A stretch of 61,180 nucleotides of DNA, filler included, from Hausera hauseri (lineage: Eukaryota), in assembly GCA_046269625.1 (NCBI GenBank). It is 10 parts of 10 records of this genome, joined end to end, with 100 filler letters (N's around TTAATTAATTAA, not from the genome) between each part and the next. Parts side by side here need not be neighbours in the genome. Positions count along the whole stretch, not along the records: positions 23,201 to 37,930 come from JBJURY010555450.1; 9 more parts are not named here. One strand, written 5' to 3'. The position numbers and the translations under genes are program-made. Within the stretch, counting starts at the first letter, position 1. Each line of letters begins with the position of its first letter. Below are positions 22,931 to 46,300 of this stretch, piece after piece. Below the pieces are notes generated by a model. That model was given only the letters and a program-made list of their open reading frames with translations, made no database searches and was not told the origin of the DNA.

Positions 22931-23276
22931 GATATTCATCAGTTTTCTTTCGTTCCGACTCGAATTACATTTCGAAATATTTGTTTTAATAATATTCACA
23001 CCGGTTTGAACTTGTAAGTAGCCACCATTGTCTTCTGTTCGTTTTCGTTCATTATTATTAACTGGTTGATGATCCTCAGTCAGAGGTTCAGCATTAAATC
23101 NNNNNNNNNNNNNNNNNNNNNNNNNNNNNNNNNNNNNNNNNNNNTTAATTAATTAANNNNNNNNNNNNNNNNNNNNNNNNNNNNNNNNNNNNNNNNNNNN
23201 CAATATTTATTTTTGGTAACAATTTGGTTCTAGAAAAAATCTAAACCAAATTGTTATTAATCATCAATTCACATCA

Positions 23277-23290
23277 TTCCCCTACCCTTA
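23277..23290 (-). promoter_or_regulatory. Polypurine tract
   Basis: Minus strand TAAGGGTAGGGGAA, immediately followed by TG (LTR start). A second copy is at 37735-37748. Confidence 0.85.
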
Positions 23291-23689
23291 AAGGGGGGAC
23301 AGCGAGAATTTGGAATCATCATTCAAGAATCATTCATACAAAATTCATGCACAAACAATTACTAATTAGTTCAAGTTTTAAAATACGACATACGAATGAA
23401 ATATTTAATTACTGGTTAAAATAGGAAATGAAAATATTATACAAAATGTGAAGGTGCTGATAAGATCAATAACCAAAGAGAAAAAGTGAAAAATATATAT
23501 ACAAGTTGCTCAAAATAAAATGATGCAAAAAAAATACAATATATACAAATTGCTAGAGAATACTTAGTCATACAACGATAAAAAATGAGAAATACAATAT
23601 ATACACAAGGTGAAGAAGACAATCAATTGTTAGATAAATGTTCAACGATCAATGTCTTTTTTCGGAGATTTTCGACATCCAGTTTAGTT

Positions 23690-26600
23690 TCAGATGTCTA
23701 AATCCACGTTTTCATATTGAATTCTGGTATGGATATAGTCCTCTTCATCTGGTTTGGAGCCCTTTCGCACACGCTCGATTGGAATCAAAACTGGTTTATT
23801 TGCTTTTATTAGCAGGATATACTTTAATTGACCTCCTTGAAACGATCTTTTGATATTGTCCAATTTTTCCTTGATCAAAAGTAACTGTAATTTGGTGTGG
23901 AATTTAATTCCAAAGTTTATTGGTAATTTCATGACGTTAAGTGTGCCGAGGTATGGAACAAGAAAATAGTCATTTTCCAACTTCTGGTATATCATTCCAA
24001 TTAATTTGTTTACTTCTGTGCTCCATTTGTAAACTTCATTAGAATCCAATGATTTTTCGATATAATAGGGACGTTCTATGTCATGTATTGGTACTGGTAG
24101 AGCTAGATATTCAATTTTAATAATAATACCAAAGTTGAAAACGATATCTTCTTTAGCGGATAAAGTGTCCTTTATTCTCATGGCGATTAAATCTACATCA
24201 GAAGTTTCTGTTTGAATTTGGACATTGACGGTTTTACAAGTTTTGTTCCATTGATCATATTCACGTTCTTGTTCGTCTTCTGACGCCATAAGTTGCAAAA
24301 TATCTTGATTATCTAGTTCAAAGATATCCGAATTCATTTCATCTGATTGCTGTCCGAGCTCAATGTTTTCTGGGGTGTTTAATTCTTCGTCTTCAGCTAT
24401 GGGATCGAATTCTGGTTTGCTGATACTTGCTTCAATATGGTGAATCCAACTGAAATTCTCCAAATATTTTTCCCGATTATAGAATAATTCACCAACGTCA
24501 ATAATATTATTGGATAAGTCATCTGGCATCCAACTGACCTGCCTTAAGTTTTTAATAGTTTTCAATATATCCATTGTAAGATCTATTTTGCCAATACTAT
24601 CTTGTTCGTAGGTATAACCATTTCGGATCTTGGGCAACTTCAACTCCTTGGCCACATTTGTGATATCTATGGCACTGAAGGATTTTTCTGTTACTTCGGG
24701 GTGTTTTAGCAAGTCAATAACACCCGCGAAGTAATTTGAGGGAATATCAAATAATTGGATCATTTTGTGCGTTTCAACACCGACTACAATGGTGCCGAAC
24801 AGCCATTGTATTAGTTCTTTGGTGACGTCGTATAAATCTATCGCGGAATTTTCGATGGAATAAAAATCTATTCCATGACGTCCCGTGTTACAATTGTGGA
24901 TTTTTTCTCTGTTGGCCACAAGTGTCTTGTACAGTATTCGACGATGTTGATCTGTAACAATTACTTCCACAGGTACTGGGGATTTATCCATTTTAAATCC
25001 CAGCGAAACAACCAAAATCCTAATTGTATTAGATTGTCCTGTACAGATATAGTTGGACTTTGTTTCTTGAATCAGTTCTGGGGGACTTTGAGCTATGATT
25101 AGTGGTCTGGGTAGAGCTAAATGCTTTTCCGGGATTATCCATTCGACCATTAATACTACTGGTATTCGATTAGGCCTAATTTGGATGTTCTTCACAGTTA
25201 AAGATGTATTAATCGCCAAGGTTTCCTCTTCCAATAAGGTTGTTATGTTTGACAGCTTGTATTGGCCATCCTTTGCTGTTTTTAGTACTATGGTTCCTCT
25301 GGCATTATGTATGACCAATCCTTCAATTGATGGGTATTCTGTAATAAATTCTTCCAGATTTCTTTGATGTGTCTCGGTGATAAGTACAATCCTCACTTGT
25401 CGATTCAGGGTGAGACCGTATTTGAATTGATTTGGAATTTTCGCCACATGGACGTAAAGAGACTGTGGGTACACGTTGGCTTGTCTTCGGATCGTATTAT
25501 AAAAATTTCTGGCCATGGTATGCGTAAATGAGGAGGTTTTTGTTGCGTATCGAGACAGTAACTGCTCAATTGTAAGGACTTCTGAATGAAACAACGGATG
25601 AGTTGAGGTGGATATCTGTCTATGTCGGATTTGTGACACGTTGACTTTTTGAGTTGGGTTTGACATGATGTATTGAACTTTCTGTAACAGATTTGACTGC
25701 AATTGAAGATTTTGACGATTTTTTGAAAAAGGGGCTGAATGATAAAGTTCATTAGATTTATACCTACCATAAACTGCGTGTGTGTCATGTGGTAACCACA
25801 TAACCAACGAATAAAGAATGAGCGGGCTTAATGTGCGTGGCGCAAGTGTGTGTGTGTCAATTCTAGGTGTCATCAGTTGTGACTGGACACCTGATTTTTG
25901 AGGGCAATAGCACGTGCTAGTGCTAGTAAGATATTTACGGTAAATTTTGGGTGACAGCAAAGCGCCCAGAGCCAAAACTACTAGTAACAATACACTTAAC
26001 ATTATTATTAACAAAGCACATACTGCTATGTTTATTTCTGTGACTTCAATGCTTTGTTTTAGCAATGAATCATTTCGAATATCTTTAGGGCTAAAGTGAA
26101 ATTTTACTACTTTGTTTATTTTTGACAAAGTTTTAATGTTGATTTCAGAATAATGCGTACAATTTTTTACTATTACTAGGTAATTTGTATCTGAGATCAA
26201 CCTTGTACAATAAGCATATTTTTGTTTTCTTTCTAAAATGATTTTTTGCTGGTTATATTGATCTATACATGTTATACTAACCCATTCATTTTTCGGGTTC
26301 ATTTGATAATTCCAAGTAAACGCTATTCTATCTGTTTTTGGATGGCTTATAATAAAGAGTTTACTGGTTATTTCAATTTCGTTGTGTCTAGCTAATTTTT
26401 TATATTCCTTATAGGATATATTACATCTATTTTGCTCGACCATGAATGCAGTATCGAAGAGACATTCATTGAGTCGATAGGGTATCAAACATTTGACACT
26501 AGATTTCACTATCAACTGCAAAATCCATTTGTTGTGTGCTTTTAATTTAAAGATTAGTGCTAACAGAGAATATGAATAGTCTCTAACAACTACTAAGCAA

Positions 26601-29600
26601 GTTTGGCTATTTTCATCATCTAAGTCTACAAAAGCTATTCTATCTTTATAGAAAGTTACAATTCGTATTGCAGTCATATTATTAGCTGATCTTTTTCGAA
26701 ATTGTATACAACCTTTTTTAAAATCTAATCCTATTATTTCTATTTCTTTATTAAATATCTGGTCACTAGGTGTATGGTTTTGATTTTGCTGAATGGCTTG
26801 AATCATTGTATCATAAGAGATGTAGAATTGACCAGAACTGGCTTGAGTACAGGATAATAAAATGATAAATGTGAATATCATTATTAACAAGTTAGTGGAT
26901 AATAAACTTGGTGATTTTAAACCGAATTTTCCTGTATAAGCTGTTGGAGCTTTAGTTACGTTTTGTATAGAGACATTCTCTATCTTTCCTGGAGATTTTT
27001 CTACAAATAAAGTTTGTGGTCTTACTTCGACGACTTTGTATGGTCCTTTGCCGGTACGAGTTAATTTTAATGATCTACCTTTTGTAGTTACTGGATAATG
27101 CGTCATAACAAAATCTCCGATTTTATATGGATTTGATTGAGTCTTTTTGTTGTAATGTTTTGTATATGAATTCTTGTAATCTTCTCTAACAGTCTTTGCT
27201 TGTTCGCCATAGTCATTTAACTGCTTTAACAGTGCTGTATAATTTTCTTCTTGTGGATTGTTAGTAAATGGTAACGCTGTTGGTAGCAAGCTAACATCTA
27301 ATGGGAGTAATGGTAACCGTCCAAACATTAATTCGTACGGTGTTTTGTTTGTACTTCTTGTTGGAGTAGTATTCATAGCAAAAGCTACTGTTGGCAACTT
27401 ATCTGGCCAATTTTTCTGATCTGCTGATACTTGTACGGATAAAATTCCTTGTACAGTTCTATTAGATCTTTCTACTTTCCCGTTGCACTGTGGGTGATAG
27501 GCTGTAGTTAAAACGTGTCTGGTTTGCAAGACTTTTGTGACTTCATTGAATAATTGACTTGTGAAGTATGGTGCTCTATCTGTCAATATCTGTCGCGGTG
27601 CACCTAAAACACATATTAGTTTATTAAACAATTCTAACGCTATGGTTTCTGTTGTCATAGCTTTCAAAGGAATTAGTACAATATAACTTGTATAGTAGTC
27701 TATGAAACTTAATATGTATTTGTAGCCATTTATCGAAGTTGGATATGGACCTGAAATATCCATTGCACATATTTCCATAGGTGCTTTTGGTTCTGGAAGT
27801 GTTCCTAATATTGGCTTTATGCTTCTTCCTCTATCCCTACGGGTGGCGCAAATCTTACAAGATTTGACCCAATTTACTATGTCTTCACTTTGGTTTGGCC
27901 AAAAATATTTAAGCTTAATTCGCTTTATCGTTTTGCCCATTGAGGGATGACCAGCTAGGTGAGAATCGTGTTCTTGCAATAATACTGATTTTATTAGTTC
28001 ATTAGGGATTACAATTAGTGCTTTGTCATGGTGTATATATTTTAGTATATTATGATCTATGATCAATCTGGTTTTGTGATCATTTAGCCATTCTGTTAAT
28101 CTTTTATCAATGTTCGGCATAAGCGATGTACGTACATATTCTTTTATTACATATAGCAGTGGATCATTGTCCTGCACATCTGCTATTTTTTCCGTATTAA
28201 GATTTGCAAAGGCTGTCATCATTTTATTGAATTCATGGTCATCTATTGGCACGATAGCTGCTGTATTTGGTTCAGAAGGATAAATGGTTCGAGATATAGC
28301 GTCGGCATCATTATGGAACTTTCCTGGCACGTATTTGAATTTGGGATTGTAGTTCAGCAATTCTAATTTCCATCGTTGAATCCTATTGTATATCCGTTTG
28401 TTCTTACAGTCAATATTCTCTAACGCTTGGTGATCAGTATATACTATGACAGGATATCCATAAATGTAAAATTCGTAATTTCGTAAGCCTTCTAGTACCG
28501 CTAAAAATTCTAATTCAGTAGTAGAGTAATTTTTCTCTTCTTTAGTTAGTGCTCTTCCACCATAAGCTACTACGTGCTCTATTTGTTCATTAGGATATTG
28601 TTGGGCTAAGATGTAACTTAGGCCGTTTAAGCTTGCATCAGTCTTTAAAATAAATGGTAATTCAAAATCTGGATATTGTAGAATAGGAGCTGAAACCATT
28701 TTCTTTTTCATGATGTCGAAAGCGTATTGATGCTTTTCTTCCCATATATATTTCTTGTCATTGCGCAATAATTCATACAATACACTGTTAATTTGTGAAA
28801 AGTTTTCAACAAAAATACTGTAAAATCCAATAAGTCCTAACCAACATTGCAATTCTTTTTTATTTGTAGGAGCCGGAAATTCTAAAACTTTAGCGACTAT
28901 ATGTGGACTAGTTTCGATTCCTTTGGCTGATATTTTAAAGCCTAAATATGTTACTGAAGTTTGACACCAATCGCATTTGAGTGGGTTCAATTTTAACTTA
29001 GCATCTCTTAATCTTTCAAAGACTTCCTTAAGTTGCTGTATATGCTCTTCCCAAGTTCTAGACGCTATTAAGATGTCGTCTATGTATGATAAGCTTCTAA
29101 TTCCTTTTAGTACTATTCTTATGAATTCTTGAAAGAATGTTGGAGCTGTTTTAAGTCCGAAAGGCATTCTTGTGAACTGATATATCCCAGTATGCGTTTT
29201 AAAAGCTGTTTTCCATTTATCGGCGGCAGTTATGGGTATGTTTAGAAAACCCCATTGTAAGTCTAATGCAGTAAATAAAGTACATCCTTTTAAATCGTTT
29301 ATTATTTCTTTAATTCGAGGAATTGGATAGATATGGTTTTCTAGATATTTGTTTAGCTGCACAAAATTAACACATAATCTTCTTTTTGTAGTATTCTTCT
29401 TTGGTACCATTACTATTGGTGACGCCCAAGAGGCTTGACTTGGTTCAACTATTCCTTTATCTAACCAATCTTGTATTTGTTCTTCCACTTCAGCTTGTAG
29501 TGAATGCGGTGGTGGATACCATTTTGGCATTGGCTGTCTATTCAAATCTATTTCTTTTCCAGTTTTTTCATCAGTTATTAAGTTTAATCGAAATTCAACG

Positions 29601-32600
29601 AGATCTGTACATCCGATATCTACATCATTAAGCGCAAAGATTTCTGAAAACTCTTTTATTAATTTAATCATGTCTTTTAATTGCTCCTCACTAACTCTTT
29701 GCTTAATGTTTGCTATCAATTGTTGGAAAATTTTGTGCTCATTCAACTCTGTCTGAGTGGTTGCTGCTAAGAAATCAGTGATATTTTGATCAAAGGTACG
29801 AAAAAATTCACCTATTCTAGTATTAGGATGTAAGATTTTTGTACGTTCAGAACAATTGGCTACTACAATCGGAATAGTGCCATTCTGTACTACTGTACAA
29901 ATTGTGGAAAAGTAGTATCCTCTTTCGAAATCTTTTGGTTCGAATTTTACTATTATATTCTCGGGTGCTAAAAGCTTTCCTTTAATTGTCATTTCGCAGT
30001 AAGGTGGTATAATTATTTCATCCATTATCCATACAGCATTTTTATACTTTGGATTGTCTTGTAGTGGTAGATGATGATTTATACAGATTTGTCCTGTGGA
30101 TAAGTCCATTACTGAGTTTTTCAGTTTTCTTAGAACGTCTACTCCAATAATCATTCTTGGGTATAATTCTTTCATTACTTGAATTGTAGCGGTTACTTTT
30201 TGTTCATAAATAACAATCTCAGTAGTCCAATATCCTATAGGAAACACTGTTTGTCCGAAAAGTGATACATTACCACTATCAGATGGGTTTGCTAATCTTA
30301 CTTCATGTTGATAATTCAATGGAATTACTGTTTGGTGTATCAAAGTTACTGTTGCTCCAGTATCTATTAAAGCACTTATTTCTGCATCTCGAATATGCAC
30401 AGTGGTTTGCGGTCTTGGATCATAAGTCCGACTGATTGATTGTAACTGCTTTTCTGTCGGGTTCCTAACCAAAGGTAACAACGAGTATACTCCAGCAGTT
30501 CTGATAACGCCGTTGTCAACAATAAATCTTCCATTTAAGGGCATTTCAGAAGTACTGTTTTCTATTAAGTTTGAATTAGTTAATAGTGGTGATGTTGGTC
30601 TGGATGAAGTAAATGTTGGTGGTGAGGTTGGTCTAGATGTTATCGTTGTAGTTGGCTTCCATTTCTGTGCTAAAGATGCTAAATCCGGATATTGACTTGT
30701 TCTTTTGAGTTGCTCATTTTCTACCTCATTAGTACGAGTGGGTGCTCCGGGTACCACGAATAATTTCCTATAATTTTCATGTTCGCAGTATGGGTCTCTG
30801 ATTTCCTTTTCGATTTTTTCCGTAATTAATGGCAAATTCTGAATATTTGTACTTGTCGACGGTAATTCTGTATAAGTATTGTTTTCAACATTCAGCCTCG
30901 GTGGAGATTTTGGTGGTGGTTTCTTTTTTCTATTATCTAAATTAACATGTTGCTCCACCAGATTCTTCCATCTTTTTTCTTCATGTGCTTTAAGTATTTT
31001 TCCGAAAGGTGTAAAAACAGCTGATAATATTTTTAGTGAGAATCCGGTAAGCGTGTATATTTCATAAGCATTTAGCAGTGATGATAATATGGCTTTTGCC
31101 GTCTGTATACTTAAATAAATTGTGAAAATTCCTGCTGATACGGTACCAAATTTTATGAATCCTCCCCATAATGTTTTTAAGAAGTTCATTGTTACTTCTT
31201 TATAATGGTCAGGACTTAATAGCTTTTCCCACCTTGCATCTTGTACTCCGTCATCTAATATACGATGTAATGCTTTATTTAATGCTTGTTCTCTTTGAAC
31301 AGGGTATCTCAATGCTTGAATCATGTCGTTTATCTCGTCTCTTGTGTAGAGAGTTGTTTTTGACAGATCTGTGAATAAGTTATTCTCTACAGCGTGTCGC
31401 AACGCTGTCATTGTAAGTCGTTTGGGTGTTTTATGCGGCTTTTTCCGCTCTGGTAGAACTACCCATGTGCCTTCATTGTCATATTTTATGTAAGGCTGAT
31501 ATAATGTTGTACAATTCACTATTTTAGTAGGCTCAGTGTTTTTATCCAACAGTATACGTGTTATTGGTTGTACATATCTAATCTTTTTCTTGTAGGTTAC
31601 TGGAATTTCAATGTAACATATATTCTTTAGAATTACTAGTGGCACTTCGACTCGTTTACATTTGTATGTAAATAGAGCTTCTCCAATGATTTTGCCTTGT
31701 ATGCCTTCGCCTAATGGCATGGTTATTGCCGCCATTTCTGGGTTGGTAGCTAAGATAGCTAGTCTATTTCTTAGGGTTTCAAGATTAACCTTACAGAAAT
31801 TTTCGATTATTTCTGTGTACATTTCATCAATAGTTTTCTGAGTTATATAAAATAAGGTGTCATCTCTGATGTTAAAATGATCGCCTATGTTTAGGAAACT
31901 TTTAATATCAACTGGTACATTATCTGCATCTGGCACTTCTGAATCTGCAATATAATAGGAGGGATAGTTTGTGGAATGAATTGCTTTTCCACACTTAAAC
32001 GTAGGTTCTTGTTGAATAAATTTCACTCCTCCTACAAGGTTGGCAGACATGATAATTGTAGGCGTTTTAATTTCTGGTATCTGGTTTACGTTGGTCTGTT
32101 CGAAATTCGTTTCGAAGTATTTAGCGTATCTTTTGCCTGAAGTCACGTTAAATATGCCTTTCTTTATCAGCACTAGATGGCAGTCAAATTTCTTTGGTAC
32201 ATCCCATATCAAAACTGAAGTTATAGTGTGGCAATATCCTTTGCCTAATTTACAGAATGCCGCATCCATCATGGCTTTAGTGTTCGTATCAAAGTTGTAT
32301 GTCTGTTGTTTTATTTGAATTCTATATTGGTCATGTACTATCAAACCTGATTGCGGTCCTTTGCCTAAATCATATGTTCCTCCATTACAATTTCCGCCTA
32401 AATCTTTAGTTCCAACAACATATCTTTCAGTTTGATGCACTTCACCTATACCGGCTTTTAATTCCATTCTATCATATCTCATAAATCCTGTGTCAATTGC
32501 TACTTTGCAAGCTTCAGGTGTTACCGCTTCTGGTTCCGGTATGGTTGTTGGGATAATGATAGTTTCGTGACTATGCATTCCGCAATAGGTTACTGTTCTT

Positions 32601-35600
32601 GATCTTGTTAGCATACATTCGTAGCCTTTTACTTGCACTGATGCTCGATCGTGATAAATATATAATGTCTTTTGTACTGTAGTTATATTTCTGGGATGTG
32701 CTTCTGGACATGAATCTAGATCCATTAAGGAGTAGTAGTCACCTTCATAAATATGTTCGCAATCATAGGCCAGAATGTTATTGCTTCTTTTAATTAGAGA
32801 CATAAGCATTAATATTAGAAATAATATTGAAGAATATGAAGAATTACTTCCTTTTGATCTCATATCCTTTATTTCAATTTCTAAGGACTTATTTAATTCA
32901 GTAGTTATTTTGGGTATCAAAATTTCTTCTTTGTCTATTACCGTTTTTAATACTGCATCAGCTTCTTCTTCGAGATCTACTGTATTTCGGACATTTCTTA
33001 GGAATAAATCATTCCATGAGCATTTGTTTGGCACTATGTTTTGGCTCAACTGTATAATCTTTCCGGTAACGGTTTTTACGTCACTTTGATCATGAATATC
33101 AGTTACTAATAGGCAAATACTTTTTTCTAGATTTTTTCGAGTAGGCTTTTCTATTAATATTTGGGCCAAATCTTCTGACGTAATATTTTTATACGCTGGA
33201 ATTTTCTTTAACTTTTTGATGTATTTCAATAATTCAAGTACTCTAATTCTCCATTTCTGATTAGAATTAGGTTTTGCCATGCCTCTATCAATATCAAATA
33301 TTTCTTTAATTAATCCTTTTACTTCTTTATATTCTTTATAGAGTTGTGGGACTTCGTAATCTTGTAACTGTTTTGCAAACTGCTGAGCTAGCGTAATAGT
33401 TTTTGTTCGCTTTGTTTTAGCAGCTTTATTTAAATCAAGCAGGGTGCATTTTGCAACGTTTTCTAACATTTTAGTGTCATCATTGCAGACTTCGTTTAAG
33501 TTAATAATTTCTGGCAGTATCTGTATTGGCTTAAAATCGCTTTCTTCTATTTCTATCATATAGGTTTTTTCTGGTAACATACCTAAATCCGAGACATAAT
33601 CATCTAGATTCAATGTTCGACCTTTAAAAGTATAGTTTAGCTCGTTCAATGGTTTGTCAATGCTTGCTCTGATATGAATGTCCAAATGTCTAACAGTTTC
33701 GTTGGTAGAAATTTTAATTTGTGGCATTATTAAACTGTTGAATTTTGGCACAACATTTATGTATTCATTTTCAAGAGTTATGGACTGTCTGATTTTTGCA
33801 CCTAATAATTTTAATAGCACTTTTGGAGTTGCATTATATAAATACTCATCGGCCGCTAATGGGATCAACTTATGTACGATTCTTCGTATTTCATCAGTAT
33901 TAGGTTTTTCTGCCAAATATGTTACTAGCAACGTTTCTAGAAAACTTGGGTGATTCTTAAAGGCATCTATTTGCTTCGATAGTTCATTTTCTGAACTCAA
34001 TTGTTGAGAATCTATTTTTTGTATAGCAACTTTTATTAAACCTTCTCTTCGTGGTCTGTGTGGGTCTTCATCAGAGTCCGAGGATATTACTACAGTATCA
34101 GATTTCTTTTCTTCTGTATCTGATAATACTATTACTGTGTCTAACTTTTTTCCTTCGGTATCTGTCAATGGCATTGTCTTTGATGAAGTAGAGTCTGATT
34201 CTTTATCTAAGTCTGTACTAAACAACATGTTATTTCTAATTTTATTTACTGTTGCTATGAATTCTTGCAATTTCTGTTCTTTTTCATCATTAGACTCGAT
34301 GCCTAACTTTCTAATTTCTTTTAGAATATTTATTAATTCTTTTTTCTGGTTAGTATCAATATCTTCATTATCTTTTAATATTTTCCGTACTTCGATCTTT
34401 AGTTCTGATATAGAGCTGATGAATTCTGTAGTGATTTCTAGTAGCTTACTTTGAATATCATTTAATGTTTCTAGTTTTTCCAAACTAAGAGGTTCTTTCT
34501 GACTTCTTTGGGTTAATATTTGAAGAGCACTCCATTTTTGTAGTTCAGAGGGTGATAATGCTTGATCTAATACGTCAGCTAACTCGATATTTGCAACAGT
34601 GAATTCGTCTATTTTATTTTTTATAAACACGGATTTATTTTCTAATATTTTAATATTGTCATTTAAAAGTTGCTTTTGTTTAGTTGATAATTTCTTAGTT
34701 TTTAATTTGTGCTGAACTAGTTTAACAATTACATCATCTAAATATTGCATTGTTGGATATTCTTTATCTGTAACTTCCTGTGCTTCTTTGAGCAAGTTTT
34801 CAAACTCAATTTCTTCAGGAGTTTTATCTTTATTTAATACTTCCACAATTACATCATCAATTCGTTTTTTCTGTTCTTCTTGAATTTCAATCTTTCGTGT
34901 TTCATAAAGCTCTTTCATAAGCTTATTGTAATTATCTTTTGATGAACTAGCAGTAGGTTGAAAATATGCATTAATAGATTCAAGTTTCTCTAATCCAAAA
35001 GGTATTTGTCCTCTAGCCATTATATCTAAATCTTTAATCATTTGATTCATGACTTTTCCTTTAGTTTCTTCAGAGATTTCTTGATCATCATGTATAAATT
35101 TATCAGCAAATTTTCTTGGCGGAGATTTTGAATTTTTTCTAGATTTTTTCAACTTTGTTAAAGTTTCTTCTGGAATGCTTTCTGGCACCTTTTTAGGCTT
35201 TTTTCCAGTGTAGCCAGGAGATATATTTTTTATTATTTTCTTTCCATCCTTATCAACAGCTGCTACTGGTACTGGCAAGGCATCAAAAGCCATTTGTTCT
35301 AATTCTGTTAATTGCTTTCCGGCAAAATATTTTCTTACTGCATTTTTATGCGCTTCAATAATTGCTAATTTAGCTTCCATAACTTCTTCATCATCTGTAC
35401 CACATGAATAAGGTGTACGATTTACACTAAAATTTTGTAGCTTTGCAAAATCCTTTGAATTTTGATTTGACATGGGCCAATGTTCAAGATAGTATTCAGT
35501 AGAAGGTCCAACAGTTTTTTCATTGAAGGCTGCAGATTTAGTGGTAGGCTCACTTTTTATTGGTAACTTATCATTTGGAGTTCTGCAATTATTAGCTGTA

Positions 35601-36439
35601 TGTCCATTACGTTGGCATCTATAACATTTTATAACTCTTCCAGCTCTATTCACATCTTCTCTACCATCATTCTGATAATTATTTCCTTTATAAGGTGGTC
35701 TATTGCCGTATTGATTTCTATTTTGGTTACTATTTTCATTTTGACTACTTGACGGATTCCGTCTACTTTCTTCTTGTGAATTGTTTTTTGATACATTAGC
35801 GTTAGGTGCTTGATAATTATTATCTCTATTTGTTTTTGGAGGTCTAAAAGCCTCAAAGTTCTGTGCCATTTTTAAAGCATCAGCAAATGTATTTGGACTT
35901 CCAGCCAAAACCTTATATTTTAAATCTGGTACTAAACCTCGGATAAATTGCGTAGACAGTAAAATATCAGTGTCAACCTTGATATCCTCGACATCATCCT
36001 TATTTCCTTTTCTCATTTTAGTTAATTTAATTGCTTCAACATAATTTGAAATTAATTGTCTTAAAGAATATGCAAATTGAGTCACTGATTCATTTTTTTG
36101 AAACTTATTTTGAAAAATTATTAATTGTTGTTGAGGGGTCATGGTCGGCAGAAATCTATCTATCATTGCTATGCTTATAGTATTCCAATTTTTTCGTTCA
36201 GCATCACTTAAATCATTGTAAGCATCTATAGCTATATCAGTTAAATACAAAGGTAAACGTCTAATTTGATCTTTTTCACTTAATTCTAATGCGGTACTTT
36301 GCGATTTATAAGTTTTCAAAAATGGTAACAACTTATCGGGTTGACCATTAAATTTCTCTACATCGATTTTAAAGTTTCTGAAATCATACACATTTACATT
36401 ATCTTTAGCCATATTTTGGTTAAATTTAAGTTTTTCCAA
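23690..36439 (-). CDS. 4249-aa polyprotein: Gag - accessory insert - chuvirus-like glycoprotein - PR - RT - RNase H - IN - membrane FN3-like protein - exonuclease-like domain (first ATG at 36412)
   Basis: Capsid-like region (FNGQPDKL...ESVTQFAYSL...FIRGL). CCHC CYRCQRNGHTANNC at 35585-35626. AYDC and CGMHSH glycoprotein motifs. DTG at 30356-30364. YIDD at 29075-29086. RNase H TDAS...ELE...TDH...ADAISR. Integrase HHCC, DDE and GPY (27038-27046). No stop or frameshift. Confidence 0.95.
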   Translation of the reverse strand: MEKLKFNQNMAKDNVNVYDFRNFKIDVEKFNGQPDKLLPFLKTYKSQSTALELSEKDQIRRLPLYLTDIAIDAYNDLSDAERKNWNTISIAMIDRFLPTMTPQQQLIIFQNKFQKNESVTQFAYSLRQLISNYVEAIKLTKMRKGNKDDVEDIKVDTDILLSTQFIRGLVPDLKYKVLAGSPNTFADALKMAQNFEAFRPPKTNRDNNYQAPNANVSKNNSQEESRRNPSSSQNENSNQNRNQYGNRPPYKGNNYQNDGREDVNRAGRVIKCYRCQRNGHTANNCRTPNDKLPIKSEPTTKSAAFNEKTVGPSTEYYLEHWPMSNQNSKDFAKLQNFSVNRTPYSCGTDDEEVMEAKLAIIEAHKNAVRKYFAGKQLTELEQMAFDALPVPVAAVDKDGKKIIKNISPGYTGKKPKKVPESIPEETLTKLKKSRKNSKSPPRKFADKFIHDDQEISEETKGKVMNQMIKDLDIMARGQIPFGLEKLESINAYFQPTASSSKDNYNKLMKELYETRKIEIQEEQKKRIDDVIVEVLNKDKTPEEIEFENLLKEAQEVTDKEYPTMQYLDDVIVKLVQHKLKTKKLSTKQKQLLNDNIKILENKSVFIKNKIDEFTVANIELADVLDQALSPSELQKWSALQILTQRSQKEPLSLEKLETLNDIQSKLLEITTEFISSISELKIEVRKILKDNEDIDTNQKKELINILKEIRKLGIESNDEKEQKLQEFIATVNKIRNNMLFSTDLDKESDSTSSKTMPLTDTEGKKLDTVIVLSDTEEKKSDTVVISSDSDEDPHRPRREGLIKVAIQKIDSQQLSSENELSKQIDAFKNHPSFLETLLVTYLAEKPNTDEIRRIVHKLIPLAADEYLYNATPKVLLKLLGAKIRQSITLENEYINVVPKFNSLIMPQIKISTNETVRHLDIHIRASIDKPLNELNYTFKGRTLNLDDYVSDLGMLPEKTYMIEIEESDFKPIQILPEIINLNEVCNDDTKMLENVAKCTLLDLNKAAKTKRTKTITLAQQFAKQLQDYEVPQLYKEYKEVKGLIKEIFDIDRGMAKPNSNQKWRIRVLELLKYIKKLKKIPAYKNITSEDLAQILIEKPTRKNLEKSICLLVTDIHDQSDVKTVTGKIIQLSQNIVPNKCSWNDLFLRNVRNTVDLEEEADAVLKTVIDKEEILIPKITTELNKSLEIEIKDMRSKGSNSSYSSILFLILMLMSLIKRSNNILAYDCEHIYEGDYYSLMDLDSCPEAHPRNITTVQKTLYIYHDRASVQVKGYECMLTRSRTVTYCGMHSHETIIIPTTIPEPEAVTPEACKVAIDTGFMRYDRMELKAGIGEVHQTERYVVGTKDLGGNCNGGTYDLGKGPQSGLIVHDQYRIQIKQQTYNFDTNTKAMMDAAFCKLGKGYCHTITSVLIWDVPKKFDCHLVLIKKGIFNVTSGKRYAKYFETNFEQTNVNQIPEIKTPTIIMSANLVGGVKFIQQEPTFKCGKAIHSTNYPSYYIADSEVPDADNVPVDIKSFLNIGDHFNIRDDTLFYITQKTIDEMYTEIIENFCKVNLETLRNRLAILATNPEMAAITMPLGEGIQGKIIGEALFTYKCKRVEVPLVILKNICYIEIPVTYKKKIRYVQPITRILLDKNTEPTKIVNCTTLYQPYIKYDNEGTWVVLPERKKPHKTPKRLTMTALRHAVENNLFTDLSKTTLYTRDEINDMIQALRYPVQREQALNKALHRILDDGVQDARWEKLLSPDHYKEVTMNFLKTLWGGFIKFGTVSAGIFTIYLSIQTAKAILSSLLNAYEIYTLTGFSLKILSAVFTPFGKILKAHEEKRWKNLVEQHVNLDNRKKKPPPKSPPRLNVENNTYTELPSTSTNIQNLPLITEKIEKEIRDPYCEHENYRKLFVVPGAPTRTNEVENEQLKRTSQYPDLASLAQKWKPTTTITSRPTSPPTFTSSRPTSPLLTNSNLIENSTSEMPLNGRFIVDNGVIRTAGVYSLLPLVRNPTEKQLQSISRTYDPRPQTTVHIRDAEISALIDTGATVTLIHQTVIPLNYQHEVRLANPSDSGNVSLFGQTVFPIGYWTTEIVIYEQKVTATIQVMKELYPRMIIGVDVLRKLKNSVMDLSTGQICINHHLPLQDNPKYKNAVWIMDEIIIPPYCEMTIKGKLLAPENIIVKFEPKDFERGYYFSTICTVVQNGTIPIVVANCSERTKILHPNTRIGEFFRTFDQNITDFLAATTQTELNEHKIFQQLIANIKQRVSEEQLKDMIKLIKEFSEIFALNDVDIGCTDLVEFRLNLITDEKTGKEIDLNRQPMPKWYPPPHSLQAEVEEQIQDWLDKGIVEPSQASWASPIVMVPKKNTTKRRLCVNFVQLNKYLENHIYPIPRIKEIINDLKGCTLFTALDLQWGFLNIPITAADKWKTAFKTHTGIYQFTRMPFGLKTAPTFFQEFIRIVLKGIRSLSYIDDILIASRTWEEHIQQLKEVFERLRDAKLKLNPLKCDWCQTSVTYLGFKISAKGIETSPHIVAKVLEFPAPTNKKELQCWLGLIGFYSIFVENFSQINSVLYELLRNDKKYIWEEKHQYAFDIMKKKMVSAPILQYPDFELPFILKTDASLNGLSYILAQQYPNEQIEHVVAYGGRALTKEEKNYSTTELEFLAVLEGLRNYEFYIYGYPVIVYTDHQALENIDCKNKRIYNRIQRWKLELLNYNPKFKYVPGKFHNDADAISRTIYPSEPNTAAIVPIDDHEFNKMMTAFANLNTEKIADVQDNDPLLYVIKEYVRTSLMPNIDKRLTEWLNDHKTRLIIDHNILKYIHHDKALIVIPNELIKSVLLQEHDSHLAGHPSMGKTIKRIKLKYFWPNQSEDIVNWVKSCKICATRRDRGRSIKPILGTLPEPKAPMEICAMDISGPYPTSINGYKYILSFIDYYTSYIVLIPLKAMTTETIALELFNKLICVLGAPRQILTDRAPYFTSQLFNEVTKVLQTRHVLTTAYHPQCNGKVERSNRTVQGILSVQVSADQKNWPDKLPTVAFAMNTTPTRSTNKTPYELMFGRLPLLPLDVSLLPTALPFTNNPQEENYTALLKQLNDYGEQAKTVREDYKNSYTKHYNKKTQSNPYKIGDFVMTHYPVTTKGRSLKLTRTGKGPYKVVEVRPQTLFVEKSPGKIENVSIQNVTKAPTAYTGKFGLKSPSLLSTNLLIMIFTFIILLSCTQASSGQFYISYDTMIQAIQQNQNHTPSDQIFNKEIEIIGLDFKKGCIQFRKRSANNMTAIRIVTFYKDRIAFVDLDDENSQTCLVVVRDYSYSLLALIFKLKAHNKWILQLIVKSSVKCLIPYRLNECLFDTAFMVEQNRCNISYKEYKKLARHNEIEITSKLFIISHPKTDRIAFTWNYQMNPKNEWVSITCIDQYNQQKIILERKQKYAYCTRLISDTNYLVIVKNCTHYSEINIKTLSKINKVVKFHFSPKDIRNDSLLKQSIEVTEINIAVCALLIIMLSVLLLVVLALGALLSPKIYRKYLTSTSTCYCPQKSGVQSQLMTPRIDTHTLAPRTLSPLILYSLVMWLPHDTHAVYGRYKSNELYHSAPFSKNRQNLQLQSNLLQKVQYIMSNPTQKVNVSQIRHRQISTSTHPLFHSEVLTIEQLLSRYATKTSSFTHTMARNFYNTIRRQANVYPQSLYVHVAKIPNQFKYGLTLNRQVRIVLITETHQRNLEEFITEYPSIEGLVIHNARGTIVLKTAKDGQYKLSNITTLLEEETLAINTSLTVKNIQIRPNRIPVVLMVEWIIPEKHLALPRPLIIAQSPPELIQETKSNYICTGQSNTIRILVVSLGFKMDKSPVPVEVIVTDQHRRILYKTLVANREKIHNCNTGRHGIDFYSIENSAIDLYDVTKELIQWLFGTIVVGVETHKMIQLFDIPSNYFAGVIDLLKHPEVTEKSFSAIDITNVAKELKLPKIRNGYTYEQDSIGKIDLTMDILKTIKNLRQVSWMPDDLSNNIIDVGELFYNREKYLENFSWIHHIEASISKPEFDPIAEDEELNTPENIELGQQSDEMNSDIFELDNQDILQLMASEDEQEREYDQWNKTCKTVNVQIQTETSDVDLIAMRIKDTLSAKEDIVFNFGIIIKIEYLALPVPIHDIERPYYIEKSLDSNEVYKWSTEVNKLIGMIYQKLENDYFLVPYLGTLNVMKLPINFGIKFHTKLQLLLIKEKLDNIKRSFQGGQLKYILLIKANKPVLIPIERVRKGSKPDEEDYIHTRIQYENVDLDI
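31013..32830 (-). other. Chuvirus-type (class III-like) envelope glycoprotein domain inside the polyprotein
   Basis: Hydrophobic signal ILFLILMLMSLI, then AYDC...YSLMDLDSC, C..TRSRTVTYCGMHSH, CNGG, CKLGKGYC...W, GE..FTYKC..VEV, CYIEIPV...P.TRIL...C, and a C-terminal TM region LWGGFIKFG...GFSLKILSAVF. Confidence 0.82.
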
Positions 36440-36944
36440 AAGAACAATAGGTAAATTAGTGCTTGTTTTAGCAAGACTTTGACTTCTAGTTAGTCTTCTG
36501 TTATTTTCTATTTTGGCTCTGAGAACTTTTACTGTTTTTTGATATATATATACCCTTTGTAATTTTATTAATTATTACTTTAGGTATACTAGTGATTTTT
36601 AAGTGTGCGACTTCTTGACTGTCAGAGTCAGATGTCTAAACTTGGCAAAAAGGTAACTTTAAATGTTTAATTACTGTATTAGTATTTTTCCCCCACCCTT
36701 AAGAGGTTAGTAGGATTTTACACAAAAAGAGGAATAAGAAGTTCAGACACGAGTGCTGCTTCTTTCGACGATAACAACTTTTTTTTTATCAAGACAACGT
36801 GACCACCTTCGTGGTATGGGTCAATGAATTCAAGAAAGTTATCGTAATTAGTAAAGTAGATATGTGAACCGTTAAGTTTCACAGAAAATGGAGCGATAGG
36901 ACGTTTAAAGAAGTTAACAAGACGATCAAACATCAAAAGATTTG

Positions 36945-36957
36945 TGTTCGGGCGCCA
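36945..36957 (-). promoter_or_regulatory. Primer-binding site, tRNA-Lys(UUU) type
   Basis: Minus strand TGGCGCCCGAACA matches the first 13 nt of the tRNA-Lys3 PBS and lies 5 nt after a CA LTR end. Confidence 0.85.
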
Positions 36958-36962
36958 ATTAT

Positions 36963-37734
36963 TGTATTTCACGATTTTTTGAAGAATCAATGAAATACTC
37001 TGAGGGAAAAAATAAAGTTTATAACTTTAAATGGTGTGTTAAAATTTTGTAATGAATGCGGAAAAGGTGGAGATTGATTAATTAACTTCGGTTTTCTGTG
37101 AACCGAGTTTAAGAATTTTACTTAGAACAATTAAAAAGATTTAACGAACAAATATAATGAACACAACAAATACAATAATTCCTTATAGGAATCCAAATAC
37201 CAAAAAGATTCTTGACAAATTAAATGGTAACTATTTGCACCAAAATAAAATGACAAGAAAGTTCAAATAAAATATTACTCTTGTAGAGTAACCAATACTA
37301 ATTCAATAATTGCAATTGTTCTTACAGAACAATTAAATTCCAATTATTCAATAATAAGACAATAAATGAAGCTTTACCCGAGGATCTAGTTCAGCACAAG
37401 ACTAAGCATAAACAGCAGAGAATATCATCAAACAATTTTTCATCAAAAATTTACGCTCAAACAATTTTTTCTTCCATACTGAAATTCGTTTCAGTATATA
37501 TACCTTTGATGCTTCTAATCTTAGTGACAAAAAGGGTATAGAACATGTTATTCAGCGATTGTTAAGCGTTCTAAATTTGGGTATAAATTTGGGGTAGAAA
37601 AAATCCTCACTAAATACATTACCAAACTATTTATGGTAACAAAACAGGGGTAGAAAACTAATATTTATTTTTGGTAACAATTTGGTTCTAGAAAAAATCT
37701 AAACCAAAGTGTTATTAGTCATCAATTCACAACA
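36963..37734 (-). repeat. LTR (~770 bp)
   Basis: Bounded by the PPT+TG and CA+PBS. The first 76 nt recur at 23201-23276 with 4 differences. TATA-like TATATATA at ~37495. Confidence 0.8.
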
Positions 37735-39012
37735 TTCCCCTACCCTTAAAGGGGGACAGCGAGAATTAGAGTCATCATTCAAGAATCATTCATACAAAAT
37801 TCATACACAAACAATTACTGATTAGTTCAATTTTAGAATACAACATACGAATGAAATATTTAATTATTGGTTGAAAATAGGAAATGAAAATATTATACAA
37901 AAATGTGAAGGTGCTAAAGAGAAAAAGTGANNNNNNNNNNNNNNNNNNNNNNNNNNNNNNNNNNNNNNNNNNNNTTAATTAATTAANNNNNNNNNNNNNN
38001 NNNNNNNNNNNNNNNNNNNNNNNNNNNNNNTTACATTGCTGCCCTGGGGGGTAGATTTTTCAATGACTGTATTACAACAAGTCTGCAGAGTCAATACACA
38101 AAACTTTCGACTCAGACTCTGATATTTCTGGTGCTTCCAAATCCCAGCTGCTCAAAAATTGCCTTGACTCCAACTACTTGACAGGTTTGTAGGATCGGAC
38201 ATGAAACTTTTGACTCCAACATTTCTAGTTCTTCTGTTCTAGATACCCAAAAAATTTCACTGACAATGTCCAAAGATTTACAAATTCTACCTTTACCTAC
38301 TACCAGTTATTAATCAGAGAAACGCCTGACCAGTGTCTCTCACAGCATGTACTCCATAGCAGAAGTGGCATCCCTTGATGTTTCTAGAGCATGAATTCTG
38401 CTGTCCATTTTATAATGGGTGGGTGAACATCAGGAGTTATGTTTTTGTAAACCATGGGTCCAGAACCAAAGTTAAACCCGGGTCACCTGGACCAAAACCT
38501 AAACAGCAGGCGAATGACTTTTTGACTACACTACTGCGGCTCTCTAGAAAGAACGTAGCTGGTAGCAGCCTATCAGCCTCCTGCACTGTTTTTTTTATTT
38601 CCACTATCACGAGATACAGGAAATGTATAACATGAATATCAGACTGTCACGATCTCAAAATGGACAAAGTGTTTAATCCTAGAACCACAGTTAAAGTTTG
38701 GTACTGGCAACAAAGTAAAACCCACATATCATAGCCAAACACAGACTCGGCTAACTAAATAAACAGATGTGAGGACACATATGAACACTTGAGGACATAT
38801 TAGAAGTGACTAGGTCAGTGACAGTTAACACTCTCGGGAAGCTCTTGATTTGGTAATCTGAGAAAGTATGGGCATTACTTGAATGTCAGAAGGTTCCTAA
38901 ATCAAACAATCAACCAGTCTAGCTCTAAGATGGAAAACAAACAGTAAAATTACGTGTGTGAGATTAATCAACCAGGAGGGTTAGTACAATGAAATGCACT
39001 AATCAGGAAGGT

Positions 39013-42085: not shown

Positions 42086-43348
42086 NNNNNNNNNNNNNNN
42101 NNNNNNNNNNNNNNNNNNNNNNNNNNNNNTTAATTAATTAANNNNNNNNNNNNNNNNNNNNNNNNNNNNNNNNNNNNNNNNNNNNATTTCTGTGTTTGAG
42201 AACTTCTGTATGAATGGGTGGGTATTTAAAATTAAAGGTGGAATCATTCCCCCGCGGAGGGACACCGCGATAACAATGGTCTGGAATGTTTGTGAAATTA
42301 ATGCAGATGTTTTTATATCATTATATATTTGTAAGGGAGATCGAGAATTGGGGGCAACTCACAAGCTGGGGGTTACGAAAAATGAAACTAATGATTTGCA
42401 AAACAACTATACTAACATTATTGTGAGCTTCGTATATAATAGACATATGAATATTCTATATGGCGTTGGAATCAGTAACAAGGGGGTCGATCTGATGATA
42501 ACGACAGGAATTCATCATAAAATATTCATGGGATCAAAGGTCTTTGTGACCCAAAATAATTTAAATGGGGATGAAAGGAAATACATACAGAGAGAAAATT
42601 CATATGGGTCCAGGGAAGAGAAAGTGAAAAACGCGCCAGGGGATAATGTAAGACGGAAACTGGTTATTCATTTAAGAAAAGACACGTATGATTTATTATA
42701 TCAATTTCACATGAAACATCCATTTTATCGTAGCAGAGCATGGTTTGTGTTTTGCACCGTGATCCGCAGATACATACCACGTAATGCAGTTGTCTTGCGA
42801 ATTTTGTATGTCCGTCTCCTCGTTTTCGGATCTCGTTCATTCCGTTTTAATGTTGAAATAAAGGCGAGAATCTTTTGCAAAATATGCACGGTGAAGAGCT
42901 ATGGGGAAATTAATAAAAGGAAACGCCGTGACTATTTTGCAGAGGTGACGCAAAATTGGAAAATTGTGAAACCTTGCGCCGAAGGCGATAAAAAATTAGA
43001 AAATATATCGAAGGTCTACGTCTGAACAAATGAAAAATACACCTCAGCGGATAGTGTCACCCGCAACGGATCACAAAGAAACATGTTCTAAACGGCTCGC
43101 GTTTGAGGCAAGTGACCGTCAATTATTGAACAAATTACAAAAAGGCATTGGATGTCCGGAACTTCAAGTTGTGGAGAAGCAGTTTGAAAAGCTAAGTGAA
43201 GAAGCACAAATTAATTATACAAATTCAAAGAAAATATTGAATCTTCTTGAAGATAGGGAATTAGAAGGAGTAGAATTACCGTATCTAATAGGAAGAGGTA
43301 AACGAGATTTCGGAAAACAGAGTTGGAGAAATAAGAAAACAGGTAATA

Positions 43349-46300
43349 ATGCGTTGTGGCGGACGTAATTCCGTGGTAGACTTAACTGAATCTCAGTCAT
43401 ATTGGTATCTAATTGGGAATGTAAAGAAAAACTTAAGGATAAATGAGGAATTCATTCTATTACATGCCGGAAAACCTCTACGGACCGATGGAGCAGTGAA
43501 AAGCCTGAGACACGGTGCAACAATTCATTTAACGTTCCAGCTAAGGGGAGGAAGCGAGATAACAACGGACGAACTCCAAGAACGTATTGCCGAGCGACAA
43601 AGACCCATAAATGAATTGGCTTTGATTCGAAGAAGATCGATGGATGTAAATTTGAACGAACATGATTATAACGCATTCCATCAAAGTTATGAGAAAATCT
43701 TTTCGAATGTCCAAGAAGAACTGTGTATATTGATAACCGCAGCCAGGAAATTAAAATGGAAAGAGAATGTAACATTACTAGAGAATGAAATAGAGAAACT
43801 AGACGAACAGAATGAAAATATCAACGCAGTTATCTATGAAAGAAGCCTAAGGGAAAGCAAATCGACAATTAATACAACAAGAGGCGCAGATAGTGGTATA
43901 AAGGAAAATGTTATACTGCCATAATTGCAGAAGTTAGAACTCCCAAAGTTTGGCGGTATAGTTACAGTGTGATAAATGGAAGAGAACGTTTGACACCTGC
44001 GTTTATAAGACGCCAATGTCTGACATCTACAAAGAATTACAATTGAATTAGTGCCTTAATGGAGAGCCAAAAGGCTAATCGAGAATTTTGATTTGTCAGA
44101 AGAGGGTTATAAAGCTGCAATTGAAAAACTTGACTCCTATTACGGAGGGGAACAACGGTGTTATGCCGCCTTTATGACTGAGGTGATGCGTTTCAAACCG
44201 ATTAAGGAAGAAGACATCGTAGGCCTAGATAGGTTTGTTGCATTGTTGGATGGCATAACAGTAAGATTGCAAAATTTGGGAAGGAAAGAAGAATTAGGTG
44301 GAGGGTTGTTATATCAAAGCCTAATGGAAAGGTTGCCCTAGTCTATAGTATTGCTATGGGAAAGACACGTTGCTGAAAATAAGTCGAGTCGAACAGTTCA
44401 AGAACTAAAAGTATTGGTAGAATTGGAAGCGAGCGTTCGAAGGAATACAATTGAAAGAGTCAGAGGTATAAATACTTTTAACCCAGGAAGAGACTACGAG
44501 TCTGATCGGATATGCGGTGAGAATGAATTGACAATTGAAAAAGGTTCCCCGTTCATAATAAATATTATGCACCTTCGAAAAGGCATGAGTTTCAAAGAAA
44601 ATCGCAAGGAAGTTTCTATGTAAACAAAGATGTCGACAGGAATAAGAAATCAATTCTCAACGAAATGGAAAAAGGGAGTAGTATTAAATCGACGAACAAA
44701 ACCGAAAACCAAATATGCTGGGAGTTAGAGAAAAACGGAGATTGCAAATTTGGAAATAAATGTAAATATCTACACGTTAATGCGGGAAATAGTAAAACGC
44801 AAGTTTGTACGTATTATGAGAGGGAATTGTAAATATGGAGAGAAATGTTGTTATACTCATGAACCGCCCTCAAAGAAAAACACGTTTAAGAAACAAGAAA
44901 GAACGTTTTACACTGTACAAAGTGATGAGGAACCAAGGAAGTAGGAGGGTGAATACGAGGAAGAAGTTATAGAAGCACAAGTTAGCTCTTACGTGACCCG
45001 ACGATCAGAAGAGGCGATAGCAGGAAATAAAATAGCTTTGCGAACTGTGGATGTGGGGTTGGAAAATGGAGAGCGAAAAGTAAAGATGTGTATGTTGTTG
45101 GACGACGCGAGTACAGAATGTTTTGTGAGACACTCCGTCGCTGAACAATTAAGATTAGTTAGTACCCAGGAGAGTGTCCGTTATGGTGGTAGGTGGGAAG
45201 ACAACAATCGAAGATGGAAAGGGTAAAAATGAGGTTACGAAGTAAAAACGGGAAGGTTAACATCCTATTTGAAGCGTTGGTCCTTCATGATCCAACAGGA
45301 AAAATGATGGCCGTGAATTGGGAGATCGAAAAAAGCAAATGGCCACATTTGAGAGAAATAAAGTTTGCCGCTCAAAAATCGCCGAAATCGGTTGATGGGA
45401 TAATCGGAGCGAACTATATACATTTGCATAGGTCTATAAAGAAAATAGCAGGAAAAGCAAACGAACCGGTAGCCAGACTGACTCCACTCGGATGGACGTG
45501 CGTTGGTGTGATTGGAAATGAAAGGAAAAAGGTAAGGACAAATTTCGTTAGAACATTTTGGACAAGAACCGATGAAGTGCAAGAGGATTGGAACAGATTA
45601 TGGGAAGCAGAACATAAGTTCCAAGAAAGGACGGAGTTAAATAACTTAGAGACTGAACTGTTAGAAAGAGTTACGAATGGAATAAAATATGAAAAAGACA
45701 GATTTTGCGTTAAGTTACCGTGGAAAGAAGAGAAGCATCCAGATGTCAGTGGGATTGACTCATCATGGATGGCAAAGAGAAGATTAGACTTGCTAATAAA
45801 GAAATTGGATAAGGATATTAGAGTAAAAGACGAATATAATAAAGTCATTAAAGAATACGAAGAAAGATCATACATAAGAAAAATATCGGACGAGGAAGAA
45901 AAGGAGACAAAATGGTTATTACCACATTTTCCTGTAGTTAAGTTTGATCGTGACACGACAAAATGTTGAATAGTGTTTGACGCAGCAGCGAAGAACAAAG
46001 AAAAATGTCTAAATGATTTCTTTGAGGTCGGCCCGTAATTACAACTTGATGTAGTTGACATCTTACTTCGAATGCGTCGCAACAAATACGTCTTAATTTG
46101 CGACATACACGAGATGTTCCTTCAAATTTCAGTGGATTCAGCAGATAAAAAATACCTACGTTTTTTATGGAAGAAAAATGATAAGGAAATTTCTTACGAA
46201 TTTAACAGACTGGTATTTGGATTGAATAGTTCCCCGTTTTTAGCGCAGTTAGTATCCAGAGTTAATGCAGAAGAGTTTAAGGAAGCATATCCAAGAGCAG

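Follow-up and report, generated by a model that had tools for sequence, protein, structure and literature searches.

A SUMO-interacting-motif-like pair, a helical domain and a ubiquitin-like domain in the Gag-Env spacer of a Ty3/gypsy element: a candidate adaptor to the host SUMO pathway

We analyzed a 61,180-nucleotide stretch of DNA (the window) from Hausera hauseri, made up of ten parts of GenBank assembly GCA_046269625.1. The part from JBJURY010555450.1 (positions 23,201 to 37,930) holds a Ty3/gypsy element on the minus strand, in which one reading frame encodes, in order, Gag, a spacer, a class III Env, protease, reverse transcriptase (RT), RNase H and integrase. The spacer carries a compact module: a tandem 14-amino-acid (aa) duplication with two motifs that resemble SUMO-interacting motifs (SIMs), a helical domain, and a ubiquitin-like (Ubl) domain that lacks a C-terminal di-glycine. 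Related elements appear to keep the helical and Ubl domains as a pair. We tentatively read the module as a Gag-linked, non-conjugatable adaptor that might dock the core, or a released fragment of the spacer, on SUMO-modified host proteins. The parts of the module are as follows; residues are numbered along the stop-to-stop frame, in which the first methionine is aa 54.

34079-34162, minus strand: tandem 14-aa duplication (aa 804-831), from sequence comparison and shuffles
34115-34135, minus strand: SIM-like unit 1, a VIVL core then S-D-T-E, of the hhXh (Daxx) type, with a CK2-type site at S817
34064-34096, minus strand: SIM-like unit 2, a T-V-V-I core then S-S-D-S-D-E-D, with three hydrophobics as in the ICP0 SLS-4/IE2 type and CK2-type sites at S831 and S833
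33770-33985, minus strand: helical domain of about 72 residues (aa 863-934), common to the relatives, from a relatives-only profile and from helices in two low-confidence models
33542-33769, minus strand: ubiquitin/SUMO-like domain without di-glycine (aa 935-1010), from Pfam, ESM Atlas and profile searches

The Ubl domain and its helical partner

The best-scoring Pfam family for the Ubl domain of the present element was Rad60-SLD (PF11976; E 0.0019, 18.4 bits, below the cut-off of 23.8), with ubiquitin at E 0.0094. A preliminary description of this DNA had placed a ubiquitin-like stretch about 100 aa after the duplication, and the match bears this out. The named neighbours of the domain in the ESM Atlas all belonged to the ubiquitin clan (0.90-0.92), an agreement also reached by a third of shuffled proteins. 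When the Protein Data Bank (PDB) was searched with the single Ubl sequence, no ubiquitin or SUMO was returned at E<=10. A profile of four sequences, the present element and the three relatives described below, matched ubiquitin or its variants in 53 of the best 60 of 162 rows, with no SUMO among those 60, and it aligned to ubiquitin over nearly the full length with one small gap. Single-copy chains gave E values of 0.02-0.3 in these profile matches, and the values for poly-ubiquitin were inflated by summing. Taken together, these data suggest that the Ubl domain very probably adopts the predicted beta-grasp (ubiquitin) fold.

No GG occurs within 25 residues after the domain, in agreement with the preliminary description, and the C-terminal di-glycine was absent in all four sequences. 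We therefore take the Ubl domain to be neither conjugatable nor cut off by host Ubl proteases, and so to be an integral binding domain. Its net charge is acidic (-4). Over the strand-helix region, basic residues number 5 and acidic residues 3; in the relatives, 6-7 residues are basic there.

The helical domain, absent from the preliminary description, was assigned to no family by Pfam, by the ESM Atlas (low recognition, 1627) or by a fold search on a poor model. As a lead only, we liken it, the version of relative P0010 most of all, to the TFIIS N-terminal/LEDGF integrase-binding bundle, although no such family was listed by Pfam, the Atlas or the fold search. The GC content at third codon positions (GC3) of the module was 0.26-0.29, equal to that of Env and Pol.

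A second ubiquitin-like stretch was found elsewhere in the window. At 43292-43924 on the plus strand, a frame upstream of BEL/Pao-type pol pieces (45193-47395, by eye) opens with this stretch, which keeps an R-G-G end and continues in frame. Its PDB matches were ubiquitin (di-ubiquitin at E 0.01, single chains weaker), and it had no Pfam match. This is possibly a second Ubl-bearing retroelement in the window, one whose Ubl could be cleaved by host proteases.

The tandem duplication and the SIM-like motifs

A tandem 14-aa duplication in the Gag-Env insert had been noted in the preliminary description, and our comparison confirmed it. The two units, aa 804-817 (34121-34162) and aa 818-831 (34079-34120), share 9 of their 14 residues and 29 of their 42 bases; in 300 shuffles of the spacer (924 aa) no tandem this good arose, whichever of two schemes was used. 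Base identity between the units at the three codon positions was 12, 11 and 6 of 14, and six of the nine shared residues are specified by different codons. This pattern therefore points to an old duplication that was kept at the protein level.

Each unit is centred on a SIM-like motif. The SIM consensus is hhXh, and the Daxx motif reads IIVLSDSD (PMC8616421); SLS-4 of ICP0 is a proven SUMO2/3-binding motif with three hydrophobics (PMC3174244). With respect to an aliphatic core of the form hhXh or hXhh, unit 1 has one and unit 2 fits only the ICP0 SLS-4 type. An adjacent acidic/Ser tail with CK2-type sites is present at residues 817, 831 and 833. The phospho-SIMs of Daxx, PML, herpes simplex virus 1 (HSV-1) ICP0 SLS-4 and human cytomegalovirus IE2 are alike in having an aliphatic core followed by Ser/Asp/Glu with CK2-type sites. 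SUMO binding is proven for those proteins, whereas the motifs of the present element are candidates. ICP0 moreover couples its SIM to a RING ligase, and the present spacer has no RING domain by Pfam. Two SIM-like motifs within 25 aa arose in 2-7 of 2000 spacer shuffles under the strict rule. The duplicated motif is likely to bind SUMO. As to the resemblance to the Daxx and PML motifs claimed earlier, unit 1 fits the Daxx type, and unit 2 departs from the strict consensus and fits the ICP0/IE2 type.

Conservation of the module in related elements

A search with the Env region yielded, among 3167 candidates, three single-frame Gag-Env-Pol proteins of 3761-3865 aa (P0008, P0009 and P0010). P0008 and P0009 share 94% RT identity and form one lineage; P0010, at 74%, represents a second, and the present element, at 40-44%, a third. 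In all three relatives a helical stretch followed by a Ubl-like stretch lies between the zinc knuckle and Env, and an unguided full-length alignment placed the module of the present element on that of the relatives. The spacers range from 415 to 924 aa over the four proteins and otherwise differ. The module ranks with the least conserved regions: its identity to the present element is 22-27%, against 31-36% for Env.

When only the relatives were used to build a substitution-matrix profile, it located aa 893-1000 of the present element; under three gap settings, 2, 5 and 7 of 300 shuffles did as well. Aligned end to end, the same profile ended at aa 1010, and none of 1000 shuffles reached its score. 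Its halves placed the helical end at aa 934 (47 of 1000 shuffles) and the Ubl end at aa 1010 (51 of 1000), and in this end-to-end test control regions gave 13 and 19 of 300. A short piece of the window aligned to full-length relatives was scattered, and MAFFT left two compensating gaps in the Ubl of the present element, which weakened the second fold model.

Two SIM-like motifs are present in P0010, where they lie 43 and 65 residues ahead of the helical domain, and the unguided full-length alignment set this pair in register with that of the present element. Under the strict SIM rule none was found in any of the three relatives. These comparisons suggest that the helical-plus-Ubl pair is the kept core of the module, with SIM-like motifs in two of three lineages (the present element and P0010), and that the Ubl, on the alignments at hand, has long been retained in the lineage of this element.

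Wider searches returned no further copies. No homologue of the module was found among proteins of 49-158 aa; the region aa 780-1260 had none in 5779 candidates, and a metagenome search with the module had none in 234 stretches. Two matches among 1.84 billion representatives were dropped, both being repeat-sum artefacts. Env-based locus searches gave 10 loci, namely five chuvirus-like contigs, one short Env fragment and four fragments with Env (three with upstream pol pieces). The module was absent from all 10, and no Env locus was found in prokaryote genomes.

Architecture of the element and other features of the window

The remaining features of the element are listed below.

23690-36571, minus strand: single open frame of 4293 codons, first methionine at 36412 (aa 54), holding Gag, spacer, Env, protease, RT, RNase H, integrase and a C-terminal extension
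37660-37915, minus strand: 5' long terminal repeat (LTR), the part matching the other end, a direct repeat with 23202-23458; the LTR continues into an assembly gap at 37931
23202-23458, minus strand: 3' LTR, the part preceding an assembly gap at 23200, direct repeat
36946-36957, minus strand: primer-binding-site-like 12-mer
35582-36367, minus strand: Gag capsid-like region (aa 69-240) and CCHC zinc knuckle (aa 314-330), from Pfam and BLASTP to relatives
32771-32839, minus strand: hydrophobic stretch preceding Env (aa 1245-1267), probably an internal signal sequence; the same stretch precedes Env in the relatives
30905-32827, minus strand: class III fusion glycoprotein of the glycoprotein B (gB)/mononegavirus type (Pfam PF24664, aa 1249-1889, E 1e-74)
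27302-30418, minus strand: protease, RT, RNase H and integrase in Ty3/gypsy order, from Pfam

The LTR direct repeat is 94% identical over 259 nt, both copies being cut by assembly gaps, and the element spans about 14.7 kb, measured from one outer end to the other of the matched, gap-cut LTR parts. The 12-mer is tentatively assigned to tRNA-Lys. Pfam matches in Gag were weak for Retrotrans_gag (E 0.044, aa 108-178) and stood at E 0.0046 for zf-CCHC; BLASTP to the Gag of the relatives gave E values of 1e-14 to 8e-19. The element thus shows the features of the GAG-ENV-POL gB-type Ty3/gypsy errantiviruses, with the protease-RT-RNase H-integrase order, a class III Env between Gag and Pol, and LTRs with a primer-binding-site-like 12-mer. 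Its host is probably an animal.

In read run X1, which may derive from the source sample, one contig was identical to the element over 33083-34112 at a depth of 32, and 2319 of 2614 matching contigs were less than 95% alike. Because most matching contigs are this divergent, we regard the family as old and multi-copy, with the present element as one open copy. Differences fell on codon positions 1, 2 and 3 in a ratio of 16/4/20, a count of 40 listed differences out of 554 that is non-random as a sample and includes only 3 inside the module; such a skew is as expected if selection acts on the spacer protein. Summed depth was low over the bins of the SIMs and Ubl (231-907, against thousands elsewhere), which is at most a hint of faster divergence.

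Downstream, the C-terminal extension at 24689-24970 on the minus strand (aa ~3868-3960) weakly matches small RNA degrading nuclease 1 (E 0.37), and by eye the first of its catalytic motifs seems degenerate. Rotifer LTR elements are known to carry DEDD-type cargo (PMC5408684). About 1100 residues follow the integrase (23693-27031, minus strand; aa 3181-4293), with hydrophobic segments at aa ~3220-3238 and ~3506-3540. These two segments enclose a Cys-containing region, maybe a second surface protein, for which Pfam lists no family; the relatives have a tail in similar position, membrane-anchored, but different. Retropepsin-like stretches number up to three in each relative (after Env, before RT and after integrase) and one in the present element.

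Elsewhere in the window, 10275-16143 is a (GAAC)n-type satellite array of ~5.9 kb, which accounts for the spurious long frames there. Other Ty3/gypsy RT and integrase fragments, 27-30% identical to the present element, lie at 16359-17890 (minus strand) and 3950-4426 (plus strand). Broken frames at 52365-59999 (minus strand) resemble, by eye, a Polinton/adintovirus-like element, with its family B DNA polymerase and adjacent genes, present at least twice. Long imperfect inverted repeats (72-88%) at 8274-9106 are possibly decayed foldback or DNA transposon ends.

Discussion

The reading that we favour, tentatively and at somewhat less than even probability, is that the module acts as a Gag-linked, non-conjugatable adaptor to SUMO-modified host proteins. 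The spacer precedes the putative internal signal sequence of Env, and therefore Gag and the spacer would face the cytosol. The spacer may then travel inside the particle with Gag or be cut free by the protease of the element. If the CK2-type sites in the Ser/acidic tails are phosphorylated, affinity for SUMO would rise, as it does for Daxx and PML; the duplication together with Gag multimerisation would add multivalency and avidity. The helical-plus-Ubl pair might be an ancestral protein-binding core around which SIMs were gained or lost. The likeliest pay-off would be trafficking, nuclear entry or integration-site docking, as for retroviral capsid and integrase, rather than titration of the silencing machinery. 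PMC10144533 reports that SUMOylation of the Moloney murine leukemia virus capsid is needed before nuclear entry and that SIMs of human immunodeficiency virus 1 integrase are needed for nuclear import and integration.

Several results weigh against the adaptor. The beta-grasp check called for by the preliminary description did not show the fold: AlphaFold2 models of the module had low confidence (mean predicted local distance difference test scores of 42.5 and 44.4), and fold searches on the models were uninformative. The evidence for the fold comes from the Pfam, Atlas and PDB-profile matches to the ubiquitin clan. The Pfam Ubl match was obtained in only one of the four members, the present element. 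Homology of the module was weak by hmmsearch (55 of 500 shuffles), by hhalign (probability 1.2%) and by pairwise Smith-Waterman comparison with the relatives (40, 233 and 10 of 300 shuffles), and the end-to-end profile test was chosen after these weaker standard tests. Shuffling the spacer gives one strict-rule SIM-like motif in 509-671 of 2000 cases, and only unit 1 is counted under that rule, since unit 2 departs from the strict four-residue consensus. A SIM-like motif within the 70 residues before the helical domain occurred in 189 (present element) and 133 (P0010) of 2000 shuffles. The spacers of P0008 and P0009 contained no SIM-like motif, so that SIMs precede the module in only one of three relatives. 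Finally, the processing and topology steps of the adaptor model are ones that we infer.

All alternatives are less probable than the adaptor. The first, an anti-silencing decoy, is unlikely: the SIMs would capture SUMO-modified silencing factors and the Ubl would pose as SUMO to SIM-bearing co-repressors or to Ubc9, leaving less trimethylation of histone H3 lysine 9 (H3K9me3) on the element. The preliminary description had started from the need for SUMO in H3K9me3 silencing, and this is established in Drosophila, where SUMO and SIM contacts are needed for PIWI-interacting RNA (piRNA)-guided H3K9me3 (PMC10363806). SUMO-like domains (SLDs) can bind both SIMs and the backside of Ubc9 (PMC13645794), and viral SIM proteins such as ICP0 counter SUMO-based defence (PMC3174244). 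The acidic net charge of the Ubl, the basic residues of the relatives over the strand-helix region, the nuclease-like C-terminal extension and the many diverged host copies of the family also fit a decoy.

Against it, at the position just ahead of the Gly in the 'F-x-G' turn, the present element has Lys, P0008/9 have Tyr and P0010 has Asn, so that the residue is non-acidic in all four. We tentatively take this residue to correspond to the acidic Ubc9-binding position of NIP45 (D394) and Rad60 (E380), in which case the acidic residue would appear to be absent here. That acidic residue is required for Ubc9 binding (PMC11065178). Further, the family profile matched ubiquitin and not SUMO among the best 60 rows, no E3 or SUMO-conjugate-removing protease domain was found in the spacer by Pfam, and the SIMs are missing in two of three relatives, a loss in one lineage. 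SUMO also serves retroviruses themselves, in nuclear entry and in integration (PMC10144533). What stands of the SUMO-pathway module proposed earlier is the targeting idea, which is compatible with the SIM-like motifs and the di-glycine-less Ubl; the anti-silencing or decoy step has no element-specific support. The fuller version, in which phospho-SIMs, a helical bundle (possibly TFIIS-N/LEDGF-like) and a SUMO mimic together form an element-borne antagonist that would intercept SUMO-dependent piRNA/H3K9me3 silencing, is rather unlikely.

To the same degree we doubt a ubiquitin-system handle, by which the Ubl, through proteasome, p97 or ESCRT-type receptors, would control turnover or membrane release of the Gag-spacer piece on the Env signal sequence, the SIMs being an incidental acidic linker. 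It would suit the nearly full-length alignment of the profile to ubiquitin and the other ubiquitination and apoptosis cargo (MATH, BIR, BCL2) that PMC6431247 reports for the spacer of the planarian element Burro. In a by-hand register taken from the ubiquitin profile, however, Thr981 and Glu1007 of the present element occupy the positions of Ile44 and Val70, with Glu at Ile44 in P0008/9; because these positions are polar, the usual receptor patch is lost. A duplication kept at the protein level also speaks against an incidental linker.

Self-assembly or a latch is improbable. In such a scheme the SIM-like strands would bind their own Ubl in cis or between Gag molecules. Gag would thereby be clustered or condensed at assembly sites, or the module would be held closed until cut by the protease. 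The motif pair and the Ubl do lie 100 residues apart in one chain, binding of a SIM peptide by an SLD has been shown for Esc2 (PMC13645794), and compartments are built by multivalent SUMO-SIM contacts (PMC9708086, PMC10363806). P0008 and P0009, however, keep the Ubl without recognisable SIMs, and the slight basic excess of the Ubl strand-helix region is a poor fit. Least likely is an ancient captured Ubl fold that is purely structural in the particle, or a passenger, with motifs arising by chance: low module identity and the high chance rate of a single SIM-like motif would suit it, but the module is kept in three deep lineages with otherwise differing spacers (in Burro too, per PMC6431247), and the motif lies at the centre of the duplicated unit, which has diverged at synonymous sites.

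Other origins and functions were rejected. Polyprotein cleavage by host Ubl proteases, as in pestivirus insertions, is at odds with the missing di-glycine in 4/4 sequences. The spacer has no RING domain by Pfam, which argues against a ligase resembling SUMO-targeted ubiquitin ligases. Recent capture of a host gene is incompatible with a GC3 equal to that of Env and Pol and with a module common to deep relatives.

A spacer Ubl is already published. In planarian Burro/GYPSM1, Env lies in frame between Gag and Pol within a single polyprotein, and the spacer holds a 'Ubi2/SUMO-like (PF11976)' domain, for which interference with host ubiquitination was suggested (Arkhipova and Yushenova 2019, PMC6431247). 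The present element is like it in the single polyprotein, the in-frame mononegavirus-like Env and the PF11976-like spacer domain (below the Pfam cut-off here). It differs in size, at ~15 kb against a giant of >30 kb with LTRs, in having one zinc knuckle, and in its cargo: the MATH, BCL2, BIR, ankyrin and dUTPase domains of Burro, assigned there by HHpred, are none of them found here by Pfam scans. SIMs and a helical partner are not mentioned in the portion of the Burro account compared; the comparison is by description only, and Burro may hold them. GAG-ENV-POL 'ancient errantiviruses' with HSV/gB-type Env occur in Nematoda, Bryozoa and Platyhelminthes (Chary and Hayashi 2026, PMC13524379). 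They share gene order and Env class with the present element, and the Env of Smed_errantivirus_1 in the supplement resembles that of P0010 by eye. Their spacer is unannotated in the material consulted: 'SUMO' and 'ubiquitin' had 0 matches in the text and none relevant in the supplements, taking the first 400 characters per cell.

Among host proteins, the RENi family (Rad60, Esc2, NIP45/NFATC2IP) likewise has an integral, non-conjugated SUMO-like domain of PF11976, and Rad60 has SUMO-binding motifs in the same chain as its SLDs, as is likely here. RENi proteins differ in carrying two tandem C-terminal SLDs in host genes, against one internal Ubl in a retroelement. Our literature search, largely confined to papers outside subscription journals, yielded no publication that places SIMs in a spacer of this kind or describes a SUMO antagonist encoded by a retrotransposon; the anti-silencing examples in the consulted part of PMC11512509 come from DNA transposons of plants. 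To a known architecture the present element adds the SIM pair and the conserved helical partner.

Burro-type Ubl cargo has been noted since 2019 and is not known to have been tested. Our analysis narrows this cargo to a compact module of ~210 residues (SIM pair, helical domain and Ubl), with a core kept at 40-44% RT identity, and such compactness makes it expressible alone for assay. For now, the result improves the annotation of an architecture already known. Should the SIMs bind SUMO, a retroelement of an invertebrate would engage the host heterochromatin pathway, either to steer nuclear entry and integration or to blunt silencing; the latter, if true, would amount to a new type of counter-defence among animal retrotransposons.

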